A DNA stretch of 64,000 nt. It comes from Candidatus Woesearchaeota archaeon (GTDB taxonomy: Archaea > Nanobdellota > Nanobdellia > Woesearchaeales > BM511). The stretch is taken from assembly GCA_018221135.1 (NCBI GenBank), contig JAAOYB010000050.1, positions 527-64,526 of the forward strand, in the 5' to 3' direction. The translations under genes and the position numbers were made by a program. The notes below the pieces were generated by a model that had not been told where the DNA came from, searched no databases, and saw nothing but the letters and a program-made list of their open reading frames with translations. Positions 25,286 through 42,328 of this stretch are shown here, one piece after another (positions within the stretch are counted from its first letter, which is position 1; each line of letters starts with the position of its first letter).

Positions 25286-25963
25286 GTGATTGACGCTAAA
25301 GAAATCATTGCAAAAACATTCAAGATAGAATTAATCATTAACGTATTTGTAAAACTAAGCATTATTGGCGTTTTAATACCCAGTATTTTTAGAGGTCAAT
25401 GGCTTCTTGTTTTCTTATCAAGTCTTTTCTTGCTTATCTCTTTTATCCCAACAATTGTTCAAAAAAAATTCAACATTTTCTTGCCTGCTGAGTTCGGCAT
25501 AATAATAAGTTTGTTCCTATATGCGACTTTCATATTAGGCGAACTTCAAAAATACTACTTAAAGTATTGGTGGTGGGACATATTCCTACACAGCTTCAGC
25601 GCGTTTATCTTGGGTCTTATCGGCTTTACTATCATGTACGCGTTTCATTACGTTGAAAAAATAAGTATTAGTCCTTGGCTATCCGCGCTTTTTAGCTTTA
25701 ACTTCGCAATCGCCATAGGAGTAATATGGGAGATTTTCGAGTTCGTAATGGACCAAGCACTTGGCTTAAACATGCAAAGAAGCGGCGTTGTTGATACAAT
25801 GACTGACTTAATCGTTGACTCCTTAGGAGCATTATTAGCAGCCGTCATCGGCTTTTTTTATCTTAAGGGCGGAGACAGCCACATTGTTAAGAGAATAGTT
25901 GAGCGATTCGTCAGGATTAATTTTAAGAATAAAAGAAGAACTAGCAATGACGAACTATTTTAA
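25286..25963 (+). CDS. hypothetical polytopic membrane protein
   Basis: 5-6 predicted TM helices; 'IWEIFEFVMD' motif. Confidence 0.5.
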   Translation: MIDAKEIIAKTFKIELIINVFVKLSIIGVLIPSIFRGQWLLVFLSSLFLLISFIPTIVQKKFNIFLPAEFGIIISLFLYATFILGELQKYYLKYWWWDIFLHSFSAFILGLIGFTIMYAFHYVEKISISPWLSALFSFNFAIAIGVIWEIFEFVMDQALGLNMQRSGVVDTMTDLIVDSLGALLAAVIGFFYLKGGDSHIVKRIVERFVRINFKNKRRTSNDELF

Positions 25964-34573: not shown

Positions 34574-37099
34574 ATGAGTTCGGAACCAGAGATCAAATTA
34601 AAAGTTGTTGAAGCAATACAAGACGACTTGTACAAAGGAATCATCAGGATAGACACTAATTACATGCACCAAATAGGTGTACGACCCGGTGACGTAGTCG
34701 AAATAATGGGTGACCGCAAAACAGTGGGTGTTGTTGAGAGAGCTTACCCTGGAGATATAGGTCTTAACATCATCAGAATGGATGGTTTGATGAGGCGAAA
34801 CGCCAAGACCGGTATCGGAGAGTTCGTAAAGATAAAAAAAGCCAGTTTTAAGCTTGCAAAAAAAGTTGTTATCGCCCCTGCAAAAAAAGGTATCGTGATA
34901 AAAGCTAGCCCCGAGATTTTTAAGCAAGGACTCTTAGGCAGACCCGTCGTAAAAGATGATCTTATTAGTCTTGGTGGTCCTAGACGTAAGAGAAGTTTTA
35001 ATGACAGCCCAATATTTGATGATGTTTTTAACATGCTTGATGAAAGCTTGATGAGCTTCGGCCTTGGCGACTTAAAATTTGTTGTTGTTGACACAACCCC
35101 TAAAGAAGCCGTTGTCATCGATGAAGAAACAGAAGTCACTTTTAACCCTGAAGCCGTAGAGTTAAAAGAACAAAAAACCATGGAGGTCACCTATGAAGAT
35201 ATTGGTGGCTTGGATGAAGAAGTAAAAAAAGTTCGTGAAATGGTAGAACTACCACTTAAACGCCCCGAGATTTTTGAAAGGTTAGGTATCGAGCCTCCAA
35301 AAGGAGTATTACTGCACGGACCTCCGGGCACGGGAAAAACGCTTCTTGCTAAAGCAGTAGCTAATGAAACTGATAGTAATTTCTCGTTGATTAACGGCCC
35401 TGAGATTATGAGCAAGTACTACGGGCAGTCCGAGGAGAACTTGAGAAAGAAGTTTGAGGACGCTGAGAAAAACGCTCCTAGCATCATTTTCATTGACGAA
35501 ATCGACGCTATCGCTTCTAAAAGAGAAGAGAGCAAAGGAGAAGTAGAAAGACGAGTCGTAGCTCAGCTCTTAGCTTTGATGGATGGCTTAAAGACTCGCG
35601 GAAAAGTAGTGGTGATGGCAGCAAGTAATATTCCTAACGCGCTTGACCCTGCTCTTAGGAGACCTGGCAGGTTTGATAGAGAAATCGAGTTAGGCGTACC
35701 CTCAAAAACTGGCAGAAGAAAAGTTTTGCAGATTCATACTAGGAGGATGCCTCTTTATAGTTATGATGATAGCTTAGTTGAGCTTCGAGGTGAAGACCCA
35801 AAACTTGTCAGTGATGACTTGGCTGAGTTCTTGTATTATTTGTTTAGAAATAATAGAGATAAAACGAGTTTTAGTGTTAAGATAGTTGAGATCAATCTTC
35901 AAAAATATTTAAAAGATCGCCCAGAAAAAAACAAGGCTGCTAGTAGTTTTGATGAGAAAGAAATCAAGAAAATTCTTGACAGAATCACTCATAACAAGAG
36001 CGTGGTCGCCCTTGACGAGATCGCTAGTATTACTCATGGCTTCGTAGGAGCAGACTTAGCTGCTCTTAGCAAAGAAGCCGCGATGATTTTACTTAGGAGG
36101 ATTCAGCCAGAACTTAAGCTTCACGAAAAAGAAGAAGAACCCATCCCTCAAGAAATACTAGACAAAATTAAGATTACTCAAAAAGATTTTATTGATGCGC
36201 TCAAAGTTGTTAGGCCAAGCGCTTTAAGAGAAGTCCTAGTAGAAATCCCTAATGTTAAGTGGGCTGATATAGGAGGCTTAGAAAACGTGCATCAAGAACT
36301 AATCGAAGCAGTGGAATGGCCGCTTAAGAACCCACAAATTTTTAGTCGTCTTGGAATAACGCCGCCAAAAGGAGTATTATTATACGGGCCTCCAGGCACG
36401 GGCAAGACCTTGCTTGCTAAAGCGGTTGCTAATGAATCCGAAGCTAACTTTATTAGTGTTAAGGGCCCAGAAATGCTTAGTAAGTGGGTGGGTGAGAGTG
36501 AAAAAGCTGTTCGCGAAATCTTCAACAAGGCAAGGCAAGCCAGCCCTACTATCATCTTCTTTGATGAGCTTGACGCAATTGCTCCTAGGCGAGGAGCTAG
36601 TAGTGATAGCAACGTTACTGCGCGAGTCGTCAATCAATTACTCACCGAGATGGATGGTCTTGAAGCTTTGCATGACATCGTTGTCATAGCTGCTACTAAC
36701 CGACCTGACATAGTAGACACAGCTTTGCTTCGACCTGGTCGATTTGACAGAATTGTTTTGGTTGGCGCTCCTAATGAGAAGGCTAGACACCAAATCTTTA
36801 AGGTTCACACACAAAACATGAAGATATCTAAAGACGTTGACATTATTGACTTATCTAAGAAGACTGAGGGATACGCAGGCGCTGATATTGAGAGTGTTTG
36901 CAGAGAAGCCGCTATCTTAGCGCTTAGAGATAACATTAATGTAAAAGAGGTTAGCGATAAGTACTTCGATGATGCTTTAAAGAAAGTACGACCTAGTATT
37001 AGTAAGGATGTCGAAAACATCTACGAGTCTTTAAAAGACCAATTCAGTAGCGCTAAGGCAAAAGAAATGAAAGAAGAAAAACCCTCATACTACGGATAA
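34574..37099 (+). CDS. cdc48: Cdc48/VCP-like AAA+ ATPase (two AAA domains)
   Basis: Two Walker A 'GPPGTGKT', two Walker B 'IIFIDEIDA'/'IIFFDELDA', N-terminal double-psi barrel region. Confidence 0.93.
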
Positions 37100-37100
37100 A

Positions 37101-37853
37101 ATGGCTTCTCTCCTAGCAATTACTCGTTTCTTAAACAAATTACTCGACATAAGAAATATTCCTGATAATAGTAGGAATGGCATGCAAGTAAATTGCAGAA
37201 ACGATGTGAAAAGAATTGGCTTCTGCGTGGATGCTAGCTTAGAAGTCTTTGAGTTAGCCAAAAAAAAGAAGTGTGATTTGATAATCGCTCACCATGGTAT
37301 TTTGTGGAAGCCACAACGATACAAGAAAAATCTTGAGAAAAGAATTAGTTACTTGAAAAAAAACAAGATAAGCCTTTACGGAGCGCACCTCCCATTAGAT
37401 AAGCATGACAAGTATGGTAATAATATATTATTAGCTAATTTTCTTGGTTTAAAAAACATAAAAGAATTCGGAAAGTATAACAGAGTCGCGGTTGGTTTCA
37501 TGGGTGTTTTCCCAAAGCCAATCAGCCTAGTTAGTATTAAGCGCTTACTTGATAAAAAACTAAGAACAAATAGTTACATCAAAAAAAACAATGACAAATT
37601 AGTAAAAACCATCGGCATTATTAGTGGAGGAGGAAACTCTGTTATTGAAGAAGCTATTGATAAAAGACTTGATTGTTTCTTAACTGGTGATAAGCTTCAC
37701 CAAGTTTATGGTTATGCAAAGGAATCAAAATTAAACGTGGTAAGCGCTGGTCATTACGCTACTGAGACTGTTGGTGTTAAGGCTTTGATGCCCTTATTAA
37801 AAGAGCGTTTCGGTGTCGAAACCGTTTTTTTAGACGCGCCAACTAATTTGTGA
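37101..37853 (+). CDS. Nif3-family dinuclear metal-centre protein
   Basis: 'IIAHHGILWKP', 'SAGHYATE' Nif3 motifs. Confidence 0.75.
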   Translation: MASLLAITRFLNKLLDIRNIPDNSRNGMQVNCRNDVKRIGFCVDASLEVFELAKKKKCDLIIAHHGILWKPQRYKKNLEKRISYLKKNKISLYGAHLPLDKHDKYGNNILLANFLGLKNIKEFGKYNRVAVGFMGVFPKPISLVSIKRLLDKKLRTNSYIKKNNDKLVKTIGIISGGGNSVIEEAIDKRLDCFLTGDKLHQVYGYAKESKLNVVSAGHYATETVGVKALMPLLKERFGVETVFLDAPTNL

Positions 37854-37866
37854 GGAGGAGAAAAAA

Positions 37867-38334
37867 ATGGTTTTAAAAAAGTTAAGTGAAGAGTTTGAGA
37901 AAACAAGAAAAGAGTTAGGCTTCAAATCAAGCCTTGACGAACTAAACCAAGTTTTTTTTATCAAGGACTACATAGAAAAGGAGGGTTTTGTAAGTCAAGA
38001 CTTCTCGCGGCAGCTCTGCTCAAGAATAGTAGACACTTACAATCAATGGTACGGCTACTTACACACTTTAGTAGTTCCGAATCCTCACAGCATGTTTAAC
38101 ATGACAGAAAGCCAATTCTTTGGTGATGAAGAAAAAGAAAAAATAATGTTGTTAATGGATGAGTTAATGAATCACTCAAGCAAAAACACCATAATCGGAC
38201 TTGAAAAAAACAAAAAAGAAGAAGCAATCTTCATCGACGACTCACTTAGCTTATGGGATAAGAAGATAAAACCAGAGTTATTAAAATTATTAAAAAAAAT
38301 TGCTAAGGGTTGGGAAAACAAAAAAAACTCGTAA
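37867..38334 (+). CDS. hypothetical protein
   Basis: ORF track. Confidence 0.4.
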   Translation: MVLKKLSEEFEKTRKELGFKSSLDELNQVFFIKDYIEKEGFVSQDFSRQLCSRIVDTYNQWYGYLHTLVVPNPHSMFNMTESQFFGDEEKEKIMLLMDELMNHSSKNTIIGLEKNKKEEAIFIDDSLSLWDKKIKPELLKLLKKIAKGWENKKNS

Positions 38335-38368
38335 CATTTTTATACTTATAAAAAAAGTTTTTTGTTAT

Positions 38369-39172
38369 ATGCTTAAGAGAATAAATATTTTGATAATCTT
38401 GTTTTCTTTCATACTAGCTATATACGTTGGTTTCTTCCCCAGCTTAGTACTGAACCTAAGATTCGTTTACTTACTACTAATAATTCTAGGTAGCTTCGCT
38501 GGGCTCTTCAACGTCTTTGGTGAGAAGAACAAAGAGTTCTTAATAGCAAACGTCGCTTTTATTATAAGTGCCACAGCGATTAATAACATCTTAGAAAATT
38601 ATTTCTTGCTAAACTACTTATCACACACTCTTAACAATCTAGTCTTATTCTTAGCACCAGCGACTATCGTCGTTGCTTTCAAACCTATCTTGGAGTTTCT
38701 TAGTGACTCAAAATTAATCTTTGACATAAAAGATGATAAAAAGAAAAAAGGGTACACTCCTTGGGACATAGTTATACTTTACACCGTCGCCATAGTATTA
38801 ATAACTCTCGTGATAGAATTGTTCTTTGACGTCTCAGATTTCGAAGGAGTACTAAACACGATAAACTGGATAATCTTTGTTATCTTCTTACTTGACCTTG
38901 GTGTTTTGTATCAAAGAAGTAAAGGAATAAAAGATTTCGCTAAGAGTTATTGGCTTGACGTAATAGCAACGGTTCCCTTAGGACAAGTGTTTAAGTTGGC
39001 TAAGTTCTTTAGGTTCGTAAGAATTGTAAAAATATTATCTAAGACAGGAAAAGCTTCTAAGATTATTAAAGCTGAGAGGCTCACAAAATTCAGCGAGTTA
39101 CTCAAATTCTTTTCTAATAAGAGCGGGCTTGAACCTTTCGAGAAAGACGAAGCTGTTAAGAAGAAAAAATAG
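38369..39172 (+). CDS. membrane protein with C-terminal voltage-sensor-like S1-S4 domain (S4 'FRFVRIVKIL') and no pore domain
   Basis: 8 predicted TM; S3-S4-like 'YWLDVIATVPLGQVFKLAKFFRFVRIVKILSK' with basic residues every third position; ATG 38369 preferred over TTG 38300. Confidence 0.5.
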   Translation: MLKRINILIILFSFILAIYVGFFPSLVLNLRFVYLLLIILGSFAGLFNVFGEKNKEFLIANVAFIISATAINNILENYFLLNYLSHTLNNLVLFLAPATIVVAFKPILEFLSDSKLIFDIKDDKKKKGYTPWDIVILYTVAIVLITLVIELFFDVSDFEGVLNTINWIIFVIFLLDLGVLYQRSKGIKDFAKSYWLDVIATVPLGQVFKLAKFFRFVRIVKILSKTGKASKIIKAERLTKFSELLKFFSNKSGLEPFEKDEAVKKKK

Positions 39173-39238
39173 GTTGGTTTTTTCTTTGTCCAAAAGGTAT
39201 ATAAATAAATAAAAAGGTATTTTCTTAAACACAATAAA

Positions 39239-40540
39239 ATGGTTAAGCAAAGCTATAGCGCAGGGGACATAGTAAAAGTAACTACAACTGATGAAGTAGT
39301 TGAAGGTATGATACTCCCAAGACCTGATATTCTAGAAGGAGACTTTCTTGTCTTAAAACTAAGCTCTGGCTACAACATCGGAATCGATGAAAAAAAGATA
39401 AAAAAAGTAGAAGTAACCAAAAAATATTCTGCACCAAATCAAAAAAAGAAGAAATTATCTTATAAAAAAGGGTTGAGTAATGTTAGCGTTATAAGCGCGG
39501 GGGGCACGATTAGTAGCAAAGTTGATTACAGAACTGGTGGAACCGTGGCGGATTACACAGCAGAAGACTTTGTTGAGATGATGCCAGAACTAGAAAACTT
39601 GGCCAATATCAAAGCGATAAAAAGCCTCAATATTATGAGTGAGGACATGAATAATACTCACTGGGAAAAAATCGCAAAAGATATACAAAAAGAGTTAAAC
39701 TCAGACGCTGATGGTGTGGTTTTATCTCAAGGTACAGATACATTGCAGTACTCAGCAGCTGCTTTGTCATTCTTCTTTCATGACGTGAAAAAACCAATTA
39801 TTATAACGGCTTCGCAAAGAAGCATTGATAGAGGTAGCAGTGATGCTTACCAAAACTTGGTTTGCGCTATTAACGCAGCAGCGAACCTAAACGGAGCAGG
39901 AGTGTATGTTTGTATGCACGCTAATTCAAGTGATGATTATTGCTACTTGATAAAAGCTTCAAAAGTTAGGAAGATGCATACTAGTAGGAGAGACGCTTTT
40001 AGACCTATAAACACTTCTGCTTCGGCAGAGGTTTACATGGATAAAAAAATAAAGGTTGTAAAAAGTGATTTTAACAAGCGAGATAATAAAAGTAAAACAA
40101 AGCTTCATTTGTTTTTCGAAGAAAAAATAGGTTTTATACAAGCAAACCCACTTATTGATTCTAAACTCATTGATTTCTTTGTTGAAAATAAGTACAAAGG
40201 ATTAGTTATCAGCGGGACCGGTCTTGGGCACATACCCTTAGAGGGTAAAAATAGTGTTAGGAAAAGTCTTGAGAACGCTAGGAAAAAAGGTTTAGTAGTG
40301 GTTATTGCTTCTCAGTGCCTTTATGGAAGAGTCAATCCTTATGTTTATAGTAACGCAAGAGAGCTCTTATTTAATTTTGATCTCATCTACGCAGAGGATA
40401 TGTTGCCAGAAACCGCTTTTGTTAAACTAGGATGGGTTCTTGGACAAACTAAGGATTACAATAAAGTTAAAGAGTTAATGCTAACAAGCATCGCTGGCGA
40501 GATTAATAAGAACCTTGATGATGAGAGCTTTCTATACTAA
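39239..40540 (+). CDS. gatD: Glu-tRNA(Gln) amidotransferase subunit D (asparaginase-like)
   Basis: Asparaginase-fold motifs 'GGTISS', 'HGTDTL'; adjacent to gatE. Confidence 0.9.
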   Translation: MVKQSYSAGDIVKVTTTDEVVEGMILPRPDILEGDFLVLKLSSGYNIGIDEKKIKKVEVTKKYSAPNQKKKKLSYKKGLSNVSVISAGGTISSKVDYRTGGTVADYTAEDFVEMMPELENLANIKAIKSLNIMSEDMNNTHWEKIAKDIQKELNSDADGVVLSQGTDTLQYSAAALSFFFHDVKKPIIITASQRSIDRGSSDAYQNLVCAINAAANLNGAGVYVCMHANSSDDYCYLIKASKVRKMHTSRRDAFRPINTSASAEVYMDKKIKVVKSDFNKRDNKSKTKLHLFFEEKIGFIQANPLIDSKLIDFFVENKYKGLVISGTGLGHIPLEGKNSVRKSLENARKKGLVVVIASQCLYGRVNPYVYSNARELLFNFDLIYAEDMLPETAFVKLGWVLGQTKDYNKVKELMLTSIAGEINKNLDDESFLY

Positions 40541-40546
40541 AAAAAA

Positions 40547-42328
40547 ATGGATTATAAGAAGTTAGGTTTGAAGTGCGGGATTGAAATCCATCAACAACTA
40601 GACACCAAGAAATTATTCTGTGATTGTAACAGCGTCATAGTTGATGGAAAACCAGACTTTGAAGTTGAGCGAGAACTACGAGCAGTTATTGGGGAAACCG
40701 GGGAGATAGACCAAGCCGCGCTTCACGAACAAAAAAAGCAAAAAAGATATGTTTATCATGGTTTCAAAGGCAGCTCCTGTCTTGTTGAGCTCGATGAAGA
40801 ACCACCTCATATCATGAATAAAGTTGCTTTAGAAATCACGTTGCAAGCAAGCCTGTTGCTTAATGCTAGGATAGTTGACGAAGTTCAAGTCATGAGAAAA
40901 ACAGTTGTTGATGGCAGTAACACCGCTGGTTTTCAAAGAACCGCGCTAGTCGCAAGAAACGGTTTTGTAGAAACAAGCAATGGCAAAGTCAAGATTCCTA
41001 ACATCTCAATCGAAGAAGACGCTTGCAAGATTGTTAAGCGAACAAAAGATCACGACATTTATAATTTGTCAAGACTCGGAATACCCTTAATAGAGATAGG
41101 GACAGACCCTGATATCAAGACTCCGTTGCAAGCAAGGGAAACCGCTGAGAAGCTTGGGATGATTCTTAGAAGCACCAGCAAAGTGAAACGTGGATTAGGA
41201 ACTATTAGACAAGACGTAAACGTCTCAATTAAGGGCGGTGTCAGAGTTGAGATAAAAGGAGCTCAGGACCTTAGAGGAATCCCAAAACTAGTAGATAACG
41301 AAGTACTAAGACAACAAAACTTGCTAGGATTCCCAAAGAATGTTAAGACAGGAGAAATAATTAATTTATCAAAAACGCTAACAAAAACTAAAAGCAAGAT
41401 ATTAAGAAGCAGCCTTGATAATAAAGGTGGGGTATTTGGGTTAAGAATTATTGGTTTTGGTGGTAAGCTAAAAGAACACATCAATCCTGGCAAGAGGCTA
41501 GGAGCGGAACTAAGCGATTTTGCTAAGGCAACAGCTGGAGTCGGCGGATTATTCCACTCAGATGAACTCCCTAATTATGGTATTACTCAAAAAGAAGTAG
41601 GAAACATAAACAAAGCTCTTAAACTAAAAAACGGTGATGCGTTCGTACTCGTAGCGGATAACAAAAGCGTTGCTAATAAAGCTTTGGAGATGGTACGCCA
41701 CAGATTGAAGAATCCTTTGGTAAAAGAAGTTAGGCGCGCTAATGAAGACGCCACAACCACTTATCTTCGTCCCATGCCTGGCGCGGCGCGTATGTATCCA
41801 GAAACAGACACCGTCCCAATAATTACTGATATCAAAAAAATAAAATTACCAGAAATAATAGAGGACAAAATAAAGAGGTACGAGAAGAATTACAAATTAT
41901 CTAATGATTTAGCAACGCTTATTGTAAAAAGCGGGTTTGAGTTTGAGAAAATAGTCAAGAAATACAAAGAAATTCAACCATTATTCTTAGCAGACACCTT
42001 GATAAACGCTCCTAAAGAGATAAAGAAGCGCTACGATAAAGATTTAGAAATAGAAGAACACCTAGATGAAGTGTTCTCAAAACTAAACAATGATGAAATC
42101 CCTAAAGGCGCAGTTTTCGAAATCCTAGTGGAATTGGCTTCTAACAAAAAAGTTGATTACTCCAAGTACAAAGGAGTAAGCGACGACGAAATCCTAAAAG
42201 TCCTAAAAAAAGTTGTAAACAAAAATAGAGGGGCTCCGATGGGCGCGTTGATGGGAGAAGCCATGAAGCTCTTAAGAGGCAAGGCTGATGGTAAAAAAAT
42301 AAGTGAGTTACTAAGAAAACTAGTTTGA
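40547..42328 (+). CDS. gatE: Glu-tRNA(Gln) amidotransferase subunit E
   Basis: GatB/E fold; ~590 aa with C-terminal YqeY-like domain; archaeal-specific partner of GatD. Confidence 0.9.
   Translation: MDYKKLGLKCGIEIHQQLDTKKLFCDCNSVIVDGKPDFEVERELRAVIGETGEIDQAALHEQKKQKRYVYHGFKGSSCLVELDEEPPHIMNKVALEITLQASLLLNARIVDEVQVMRKTVVDGSNTAGFQRTALVARNGFVETSNGKVKIPNISIEEDACKIVKRTKDHDIYNLSRLGIPLIEIGTDPDIKTPLQARETAEKLGMILRSTSKVKRGLGTIRQDVNVSIKGGVRVEIKGAQDLRGIPKLVDNEVLRQQNLLGFPKNVKTGEIINLSKTLTKTKSKILRSSLDNKGGVFGLRIIGFGGKLKEHINPGKRLGAELSDFAKATAGVGGLFHSDELPNYGITQKEVGNINKALKLKNGDAFVLVADNKSVANKALEMVRHRLKNPLVKEVRRANEDATTTYLRPMPGAARMYPETDTVPIITDIKKIKLPEIIEDKIKRYEKNYKLSNDLATLIVKSGFEFEKIVKKYKEIQPLFLADTLINAPKEIKKRYDKDLEIEEHLDEVFSKLNNDEIPKGAVFEILVELASNKKVDYSKYKGVSDDEILKVLKKVVNKNRGAPMGALMGEAMKLLRGKADGKKISELLRKLV

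Follow-up and report, generated by a model that had tools for sequence, protein, structure and literature searches.

Locus and Protein Layout

Within a 64,000-nucleotide stretch of the Candidatus Woesearchaeota contig JAAOYB010000050.1 (the window, in whose numbering coordinates are given here), an intact open reading frame (ORF) at positions 38369-39172 of the forward strand encodes a protein of 267 amino acids with eight transmembrane (TM) helices. The product is identical to the NCBI entry "hypothetical protein GOV05_04985" of Candidatus Woesearchaeota and is referred to below as GOV05_04985. It is very probably a genuine fusion protein of a pore-less voltage-sensor domain (VSD), in which a membrane module of four helices precedes the sensor. 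The reading frame stays open between a TTG at 38300 and the stop codon at 39170-39172; the ATG at 38369 was taken as the start, since the resulting 267 amino acids equal the length of the NCBI protein and agree with the N-termini of all aligned homologues. Databases label the members of this family "hypothetical protein" or, through automatic Pfam transfer, "ion transporter". The features of the gene are as follows.

38369-39172, forward strand, stop codon included: whole gene, consisting of the N-terminal four-helix domain, the S1-S4 voltage sensor and a basic tail (from the ORF, the sequence, the NCBI identity and full-length homologues)
38369-38710, forward strand: N-terminal domain of four TM helices, residues 1-114 (AlphaFold2 model, hidden Markov model (HMM) and hhalign)
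38711-38758, forward strand: Lys-rich, predicted cytoplasmic linker, residues 115-130 (predicted local distance difference test score (pLDDT) below 50 at residues 117-123; gapped and of differing length among homologues)
38759-38824, forward strand: S1, residues 131-152, beginning with the invariant W132 (AlphaFold2 helix, column counts and PF00520 match)
38834-38917, forward strand: S2, residues 156-183, with the F173-x-x-D176 centre (column counts)
38927-38980, forward strand: S3, residues 187-204, with WLDVIATVPL, the invariant D197 and P203 in 46 of 47 homologues (column counts; AlphaFold2 helices 187-193 and 195-201)
38981-39043, forward strand: S4, residues 205-225, with five basic residues at every third position (Lys/Arg counts and KvAP register)
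39044-39103, forward strand: polybasic helix following S4, residues 226-245, variable in length (AlphaFold2 model, a single helix 205-248 with pLDDT dropping below 50)
39104-39133, forward strand: motif K-F-F-S-x-x-S-G-(F/L)-(N), residues 246-255, KFFSNKSGLE in this protein (column counts)
39134-39169, forward strand: short charged tail ending in KKKK (sequences and alignment)
38339-38344, forward strand: TATA-like TTTATA about 25 nucleotides 5' of the ATG (read off the sequence)

Hydropathy and the AlphaFold2 model place the eight helices at residues 2-22, 30-48, 54-75 and 82-113 (TM1 to TM4), 131-152 (S1), 156-183 (S2), 187-201 (S3) and 205-248 (S4 with its extension). Clusters of Lys and Arg residues were found at the N-terminus, in the TM2-TM3 loop, in the linker between TM4 and S1, in the S2-S3 loop and at the C-terminus, and in none of the remaining loops. 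By the positive-inside rule, this distribution predicts a topology of eight TM helices with both termini inside, which to our knowledge is the orientation of every known VSD. The TTTATA is a possible archaeal promoter and suggests that the gene may have a promoter of its own and a leaderless mRNA.

The C-terminal Half Is a Voltage-Sensor Domain

The preliminary description of this gene had read the four C-terminal helices as the S1-S4 segments of a voltage sensor, and this reading is borne out by profile and structure comparisons. The Pfam family PF00520 (Ion_trans) matched the C-terminal 144 residues with an E-value of 3.4e-7 and 30.2 bits (gathering cut-off 25), and the match spans positions 2-120 of the 241 positions of the profile, which is S1-S4 only and no part of the pore. 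The full-length protein matched nothing in Pfam or NCBIfam and only the isolated C-terminal half scored; composition filters are probably the reason why the match was missed at full length. In our alignment of 47 full-length homologues, which are 25-41% identical to GOV05_04985, 15 sequences matched PF00520 individually and no other family recurred.

A phmmer search of the Protein Data Bank (PDB) with the single sequence gave only matches at E ~2, to Kv1.2 and Kv3.1. A profile of the family matched the VSD of KvAP (1ORS) at an E-value of 5.7e-6 with S4 in register with R1-R4, such that positions 209, 212, 215 and 218 align to KvAP R117, R120, R123 and R126. The VSDs of NavRh, Kv1.3 and NavMs were matched as well (E 5.7e-6 for KvAP to 7e-3 for the weakest), and all matches to solved VSDs fall at profile positions ~143-239. 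The AlphaFold2 model of the sensor half is an antiparallel four-helix bundle that superposes on solved VSDs, while Foldseek alone returned no significant match from the PDB. In structure searches Hv1 was placed below the VSDs of Kv, Cav and CatSper. On every criterion that could be tested, GOV05_04985 belongs to the VSD superfamily.

Seven columns are invariant in all 47 homologues, namely W132, F173, D176, F190, D197, K212 and R215. The two segments on which the preliminary description had relied are present as quoted: WLDVIATVPL occupies residues 195-204 of S3 (nucleotides 38951-38980) and FKLAKFFRFVRIVKIL residues 208-223 of S4 (nucleotides 38990-39037). The basic residues that it had noted at every third position of S4 are K209, K212, R215, R218 and K221, and the periodicity is conserved, with Lys or Arg at position 209 in 31 homologues, at 212 and 215 in all 47, at 218 in 43 and at 221 in 39. 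It had also named the countercharges of S2 and S3 as a check on the sensor, and these are present too: the charge-transfer centre, formed by F173-x-x-D176 of S2 together with D197 of S3, is complete in every homologue. Neither of the two outcomes that the preliminary description had named as refuting its reading, helices that profiles do not align to VSDs or a basic periodicity lost in homologues, was observed. The outer acidic residue of S2 at position 166 is Asp or Glu in 41/47 homologues and Asn in GOV05_04985. The spacing of positions 166, 173 and 176 (seven, then three residues) is that of E283, F290 and E293 in Shaker. The sensor is under selection, as W132, F173, D176, D197, K212 and R215 never vary although the sequences are no more than 25-41% identical to GOV05_04985.

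No Pore Follows the Sensor

No S4-S5 linker and no S5-P-loop-S6 as in the six-helix voltage-gated channels were found in GOV05_04985. The preliminary description had already stated that no pore follows the sensor, which stands, and had put the remaining length at about 35 residues, which does not: 42 residues follow K225, the last residue of S4. The next gene, gatD (with GatD_N and asparaginase domains), begins at 39239, and the 66 nucleotides between it and the stop codon are too few to hold S5-P-S6 in any frame. A re-entrant pore helix or selectivity filter was found nowhere in the protein, the N-terminal helices included, and the K+-channel signature T-x-G-[YF]-G occurs in no ORF of the window.

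The gene lies among housekeeping genes: CDC48, NIF3 and a gene for a 155-residue protein precede it, and gatD, gatE and genes for an LPG_synthase_TM protein and a PfkB kinase come after it. Besides GOV05_04985, the membrane proteins encoded in the window are a MatE protein, a DsbD/HMA protein, a P-type ATPase, an M50 protease and a protein of 225 residues. No pore-type gene was found next to GOV05_04985 or among these membrane proteins, in agreement with the preliminary description, and neither of its two domains has a second copy in the window. The 155-residue protein directly upstream (37867-38334, forward strand) is soluble, has no Pfam match and is not kept beside the homologues; the 225-residue protein (25286-25963, forward strand) has several TM helices and likewise no Pfam match.

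The N-terminal Domain Belongs to a Large DPANN Family

The four additional TM helices before the sensor, which had been noted from the sequence at the outset, proved to be a distinct DPANN family of four-helix proteins. AlphaFold2 models residues 1-114 as a plain up-down four-helix TM bundle with a pLDDT of ~90-98 and loops of 5-7 residues. An HMM built from 23 stand-alone proteins of ~110 amino acids matched residues ~4-114 of GOV05_04985 at an E-value of 2e-25, and hhalign aligned the stand-alone with the fused N-terminal domains at a probability of 99.7% (E 2e-26). The stand-alone family (for example P0072, P0166, P0167 and P0198, loci L033-L038) comprises at least 2138 clusters, all labelled "hypothetical" and none with a Pfam domain; the named clusters are from Woesearchaeota and Aenigmarchaeota.

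Conserved positions of the fused domain are G41 and G45 in TM2, N48 together with the acidic, presumably cytoplasmic TM2-TM3 loop, and N90 and P96 in TM4. The stand-alone family is characterized by a GxxxG-like LGxxVGxLN in TM2, N(I/V)(T/S)xxE..FL in the acidic TM2-TM3 loop and FVxPAAxxVALK in TM4, of which GOV05_04985 retains G41, G45, N48, F57-L58, N90, P96 and K104. Rare tandem duplicates of the domain (P0095, P0140 and P0152) hint at an oligomeric function.

No relative of the domain was found in Pfam, NCBIfam or the PDB, and residues 1-123 gave no match to Pfam. A comparison with the TM region of HPP (PF04982) by hhalign gave a probability of at most 2%, a weak test as the HPP profile was made from two sequences. 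The possibility that the domain is a second, degenerate VSD was rejected, as it resembles S1-S4 neither in profile nor in fold. No informative gene neighbourhood was found around the stand-alone genes. Judged from these alignments, the N-terminal half is an independent, conserved unit and a member of a widespread DPANN family of four-helix membrane proteins.

The C-terminal Extension Carries a Conserved Motif

Beyond S4, a second run of Lys or Arg at every third position was found at 237, 240, 243 and 246 (39, 35, 39 and 45 of the 47 homologues, respectively). It leads into the KFFS motif, whose columns are K246 (45/47), F248 (42), S249 (43), S252 (41), F254 (34) and N255 (31). Except for this motif, the 42-residue tail of GOV05_04985 is of low complexity, and it has no Pfam match; in some homologues the Lys-rich low-complexity tail reaches up to ~100 residues. 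A related motif, K(I/F)FSK, is present in relatives that consist of the VSD only, and the KFFS element is therefore assigned to the sensor and not to the N-terminal domain. Stand-alone N-terminal domain proteins have no motif of this type and carry acidic residues at their C-terminal end.

Much longer C-terminal tails of 100-300 residues were seen in P0027, P0032 and P0035, with repeats of Lys, Ala, Pro and Thr that resemble histone-H1-like tails; these may represent low-complexity expansion.

Distribution and Modularity

An exhaustive phmmer search recovered 342 cluster representatives at E ≤ 1e-3, of which 60 reached E ≤ 1e-10, while word-indexed searches with the protein or the family alignment retrieved essentially only the query itself. 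Among the 150 best cluster representatives, 52 combine the N-terminal domain with the VSD, 68 are VSD-only, 24 consist of the N-terminal domain only, two are tandem N-terminal domains and four are channels with a VSD and a pore. In species-representative genomes, the fused layout is almost confined to DPANN archaea (metagenome-assembled genomes (MAGs) of Woesearchaeota, Nanoarchaeia and Nanobdellota). No relatives were found in viral contigs. A truncated or frameshifted gene was considered as an explanation of the missing pore and is ruled out by the lack of room downstream and by the conservation of the layout in those 52 representatives.

A few loci carry labels at odds with this range, namely L002, L010, L011 and L019 ("uncultured Methanosarcinales"), L007 ("Muiribacteriota") and L014 ("Gammaproteobacteria"), probably because the records were mis-binned or mislabelled.

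A survey of 32 genome loci and 19 metagenome loci revealed no conserved neighbour gene, operon partner or adjacent pore gene. One locus shares its gene order with the window: L009 (Woesearchaeota BM511, PKTL01000043.1) has the order CDC48, NIF3, small ORF, the gene in question, gatD and gatE, as in window 34574-42328. The gene in this slot (L009:7977-8411) encodes P0028, a VSD-only protein of 144 amino acids which has the tail, whose VSD is 46% identical to that of GOV05_04985 and which is its second-closest relative. Since this VSD-only protein occupies the syntenic slot, an orthologous locus has either gained or lost the N-terminal domain.

Related VSDs were also seen next to other partner domains. 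DPANN proteins of ~750-790 amino acids carry a VSD at the N-terminus, followed by an APC-type amino-acid permease (PF13520, E 1e-42 to 1e-46) and, at the C-terminus, an S-adenosylmethionine (SAM)-methyltransferase domain (loci L013, L015, L016 (7998-10244), L017, L019, L020, L022 (7953-10283), L044, L045, L046 and L052), which looks like an undescribed fusion of a voltage sensor with a transporter. Proteins of ~315 amino acids from a Nealsonbacteria MAG and one other MAG join HPP (PF04982) to a VSD (L014:7662-8615, L023:7449-8384 from the Nealsonbacteria MAG, and L051); their domain order is that of GOV05_04985, and their S4 is degenerate and followed by a second Arg-rich segment, RFLRPLARFPRFAR.

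Proposed Mechanism and Alternatives

S4 would respond to changes in membrane potential, as it does in all VSDs studied, by passing through the charge-transfer centre in the manner of Kv and Nav channels, VSP and SLC9C1. With neither an S4-S5 linker nor a pore present, this movement must pass to something else, and we propose that it is coupled to the fused four-helix module, a reading to which we assign a probability of roughly 0.4. The movement would be relayed through intramembrane contacts, through the long helix that extends S4, or through both; this helix would face the conserved acidic cytoplasmic TM2-TM3 loop of the module. Thousands of DPANN proteins consist of this module alone, and it also occurs in tandem duplicates; we therefore read it as the regulated effector, probably a small oligomeric unit that conducts, transports or organises the membrane and that would otherwise be constitutive. 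GOV05_04985 would then relate to the stand-alone proteins as a Kv channel relates to a pore-only channel, or SLC9C1 to an ordinary Na+/H+ exchanger. A sensor fused to a module that works independently is, by analogy, the classic sensor-effector pattern, and in SLC9C1 there is an earlier case of a VSD that stands C-terminal to a membrane module other than a channel (PMC6052114, PMC13095418).

Several observations weigh against such a coupling. The predicted template modelling score (pTM) of the AlphaFold2 model is only 0.57, the linker between the domains is disordered and variable, and no confident interface between the N-terminal domain and the VSD was predicted. The positional orthologue P0028 does without the N-terminal domain, and 68 of the 150 best representatives are VSD-only, such that the VSD and tail can exist without an attached four-helix module. 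Nor was a VSD-only gene found beside a stand-alone N-terminal domain gene in 57 loci, or the reverse. Both the coupling and the function of the module are, moreover, what we infer.

Part of this evidence would suit an output through the tail, which we nevertheless consider unlikely. S4 would here shift the position of the polybasic helix and of the KFFSxxSGFN motif on the inner face of the membrane and so alter how they bind anionic lipids or a partner in the cytoplasm, much like the polybasic linker between S4 and the phosphatase of VSP without the enzyme; the four-helix bundle would have an accessory part, as an anchor or for oligomerisation. The motif and the Lys/Arg run indeed travel with the VSD and not with the N-terminal domain (K246 in 45/47 and S249 in 43/47 homologues, and K(I/F)FSK in the VSD-only proteins), the syntenic orthologue in L009 and the VSD-only representatives keep sensor and lack module, the stand-alone N-terminal domains have acidic C-terminal ends and no such motif, and AlphaFold2 extends S4 as one long cytoplasmic helix, as in SLC9C1 (PMC13095418). 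However, no partner could be identified and no neighbour gene is conserved across loci, the tail has a pLDDT below 50 and a variable length, and Lys-rich tails may be mere low-complexity expansion in AT-rich genomes. An output through the tail would also leave the fusion to the N-terminal domain in 52 of the 150 best representatives unexplained.

It is likewise doubtful that the VSD is itself the permeation path, that is, a voltage-gated proton or cation conductance comparable to Hv1, to omega or gating-pore currents or to the isolated Shaker VSD. Hv1 and a Shaker VSD truncated after S4 do conduct (PMC5092046, PMC12332018), and neither the family nor its VSD-only relatives have another obvious conducting element. 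Position 209 (R1) is non-basic in 16 of the 47 homologues, and with N166 GOV05_04985 has no outer acid in S2. On the other hand, the hallmarks of Hv1 (RxWRxxR, found in no member, and a conserved acid in the middle of S1) are absent, neither the hydrophobic plug F173 nor any of the central charges varies, which is the pattern of non-conducting VSDs, Hv1 ranked below other VSDs in the structure searches, and Hv channels are reported to be absent from bacteria and archaea (PMC13095418).

Quite improbable is a role as a trans-acting sensor subunit that confers voltage dependence on a separately encoded pore-only channel or transporter. VSDs are portable, as the VSD of Ci-VSP joined to Kcv makes a voltage-gated channel (PMC3581695), and a 2026 preprint reports functional co-assembly of Kir2.1 with VSP VSDs (10.64898/2026.08.07.743441). 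The fusion of related VSDs to an APC permease or to HPP in other DPANN and candidate phyla radiation (CPR) proteins adds to this a diversity of membrane partners. Yet the loci examined have no pore-type or transporter gene beside the gene or conserved in its vicinity, the window's remaining membrane proteins are of the MatE, DsbD, P-type ATPase and M50 protease kinds and similar, and no amphipathic element of conserved length resembling an S4-S5 linker was found.

That GOV05_04985 is a degenerate, non-sensing relic of a channel which lost its pore and retains S1-S4 for structure only is scarcely credible: cyclic nucleotide-gated (CNG) channels and others are nearly voltage-independent despite a charged S4 (PMC6768053) and the protein is annotated only as hypothetical, but it is exactly the charge-transfer residues that stay invariant at 25-41% identity, the layout kept in 52 of the 150 best representatives is no sporadic truncation, and no pore remnant lies downstream.

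Novelty and Implications

The VSDs outside channels that are listed in reviews from 2018 to 2025 are those of Hv1, VSP, TMEM266 and SLC9C1, all of them eukaryotic (PMC6052114, PMC13095418, PMC12332018), and Hv channels are stated to be absent from bacteria and archaea (PMC13095418). In a 2019 study of how VSDs evolved, Hv1 and VSP are the only independent sensor modules cited; in the accepted origin of the channels, an independent sensor of four TM helices was fused to a pore of two, and no independent sensor from a prokaryote is given as an example (PMC6768053). In our full-text literature search, which mostly did not reach subscription papers, VSD proteins without a pore were not described from any prokaryote. 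GOV05_04985 represents a known sensor domain in a new, conserved and pore-less archaeal layout.

We rate it as close to an even call that this family, along with its VSD-only sisters, represents the first non-channel voltage-sensing proteins from prokaryotes, passing the membrane potential to a new four-helix effector or to a cytoplasmic motif. If so, the VSD would, together with the APC-permease and HPP fusions, be a general portable regulatory module in prokaryotes, and archaea would supply the long-postulated independent sensor module of the fusion hypothesis. The pore-less identity of the sensor is solid, would be unexpected to those who study channels, and has a bearing on how voltage-gated channels arose. 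The fusion is also the first functional lead for the very large unannotated DPANN family of four-helix proteins, and with 267 amino acids GOV05_04985 would be a small, tractable system for what voltage sensors control besides pores. It raises the question why tiny, host-dependent DPANN cells would sense their membrane potential.

Comparison With Known Systems

GOV05_04985 shares with the KvAP-type VSD the four-helix S1-S4 bundle, the S4 basic residues in register, the aromatic-x-x-acid of S2 and the acid of S3. It differs from voltage-gated channels in having no S4-S5 linker and no S5-P-S6 and in the extra TM helices that precede the sensor, and the polybasic extension with the KFFSxxSGFN motif is unique to its family.

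The preliminary description had likened the protein to the pore-less Hv1 and VSP. A sensor without a pore is indeed what was found, but membership in either family is not, and both serve as analogies only. Hv1 is likewise small and a VSD without a separate pore domain; it has an RxWRxxR in S4, an Asp filter in the middle of S1, three S4 charges and a C-terminal coiled coil, whereas GOV05_04985 lacks the first two, has five S4 charges and has no predicted coiled coil. RxWRxxR is absent from its S4, and Trp is not among the most frequent residues at columns 210 and 211 of the 47 homologues. For the mid-S1 acid (D112 in human Hv1), columns 134-149 of S1 hold hydrophobic or small residues, an equivalence judged without an explicit alignment to Hv1; the only semi-conserved acid of S1, Glu or Asp in 24 of the 47 homologues, is at position 150 at its outer end. 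Ci-VSP (PDB 4G7V) carries a PTEN-like phosphatase (CX5R) and a C2 domain after its sensor. Neither was found in GOV05_04985, which is archaeal and has 42 residues after S4 and an additional four-helix domain.

TMEM266 (HVRP1) is also a pore-less S1-S4 protein, with an output that is not known (PMC6392501). It is vertebrate-specific and has no N-terminal four-helix domain, and its relation to GOV05_04985 is that of VSDs in general. Related sensors are in the prokaryotic HPP-VSD, VSD-APC permease-methyltransferase and VSD-only proteins of DPANN/CPR-type genomes, whose VSDs are related to that of GOV05_04985 with HMM E-values of 1e-12 to 1e-41. The HPP and APC fusions differ from it in the partner domain, and all of these proteins are uncharacterised.

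SLC9C1 (PDB 8PCZ) has the same order as GOV05_04985, a membrane module followed by a VSD. It is, however, a eukaryotic protein that combines an NhaP-type exchanger of 13-14 TM helices with a domain binding cyclic nucleotides (CNBD), in place of which GOV05_04985 has a four-helix bundle and no CNBD; the Na+/H+ exchanger family PF00999 was not found in it either. As the defining features of each class were looked for and are not present, GOV05_04985 is neither a voltage-gated channel nor an Hv1, a VSP or an SLC9C1 homologue. In working principle, the closest analogues would be SLC9C1, with its module followed by a VSD, and VSP, with its output through a basic segment after S4.

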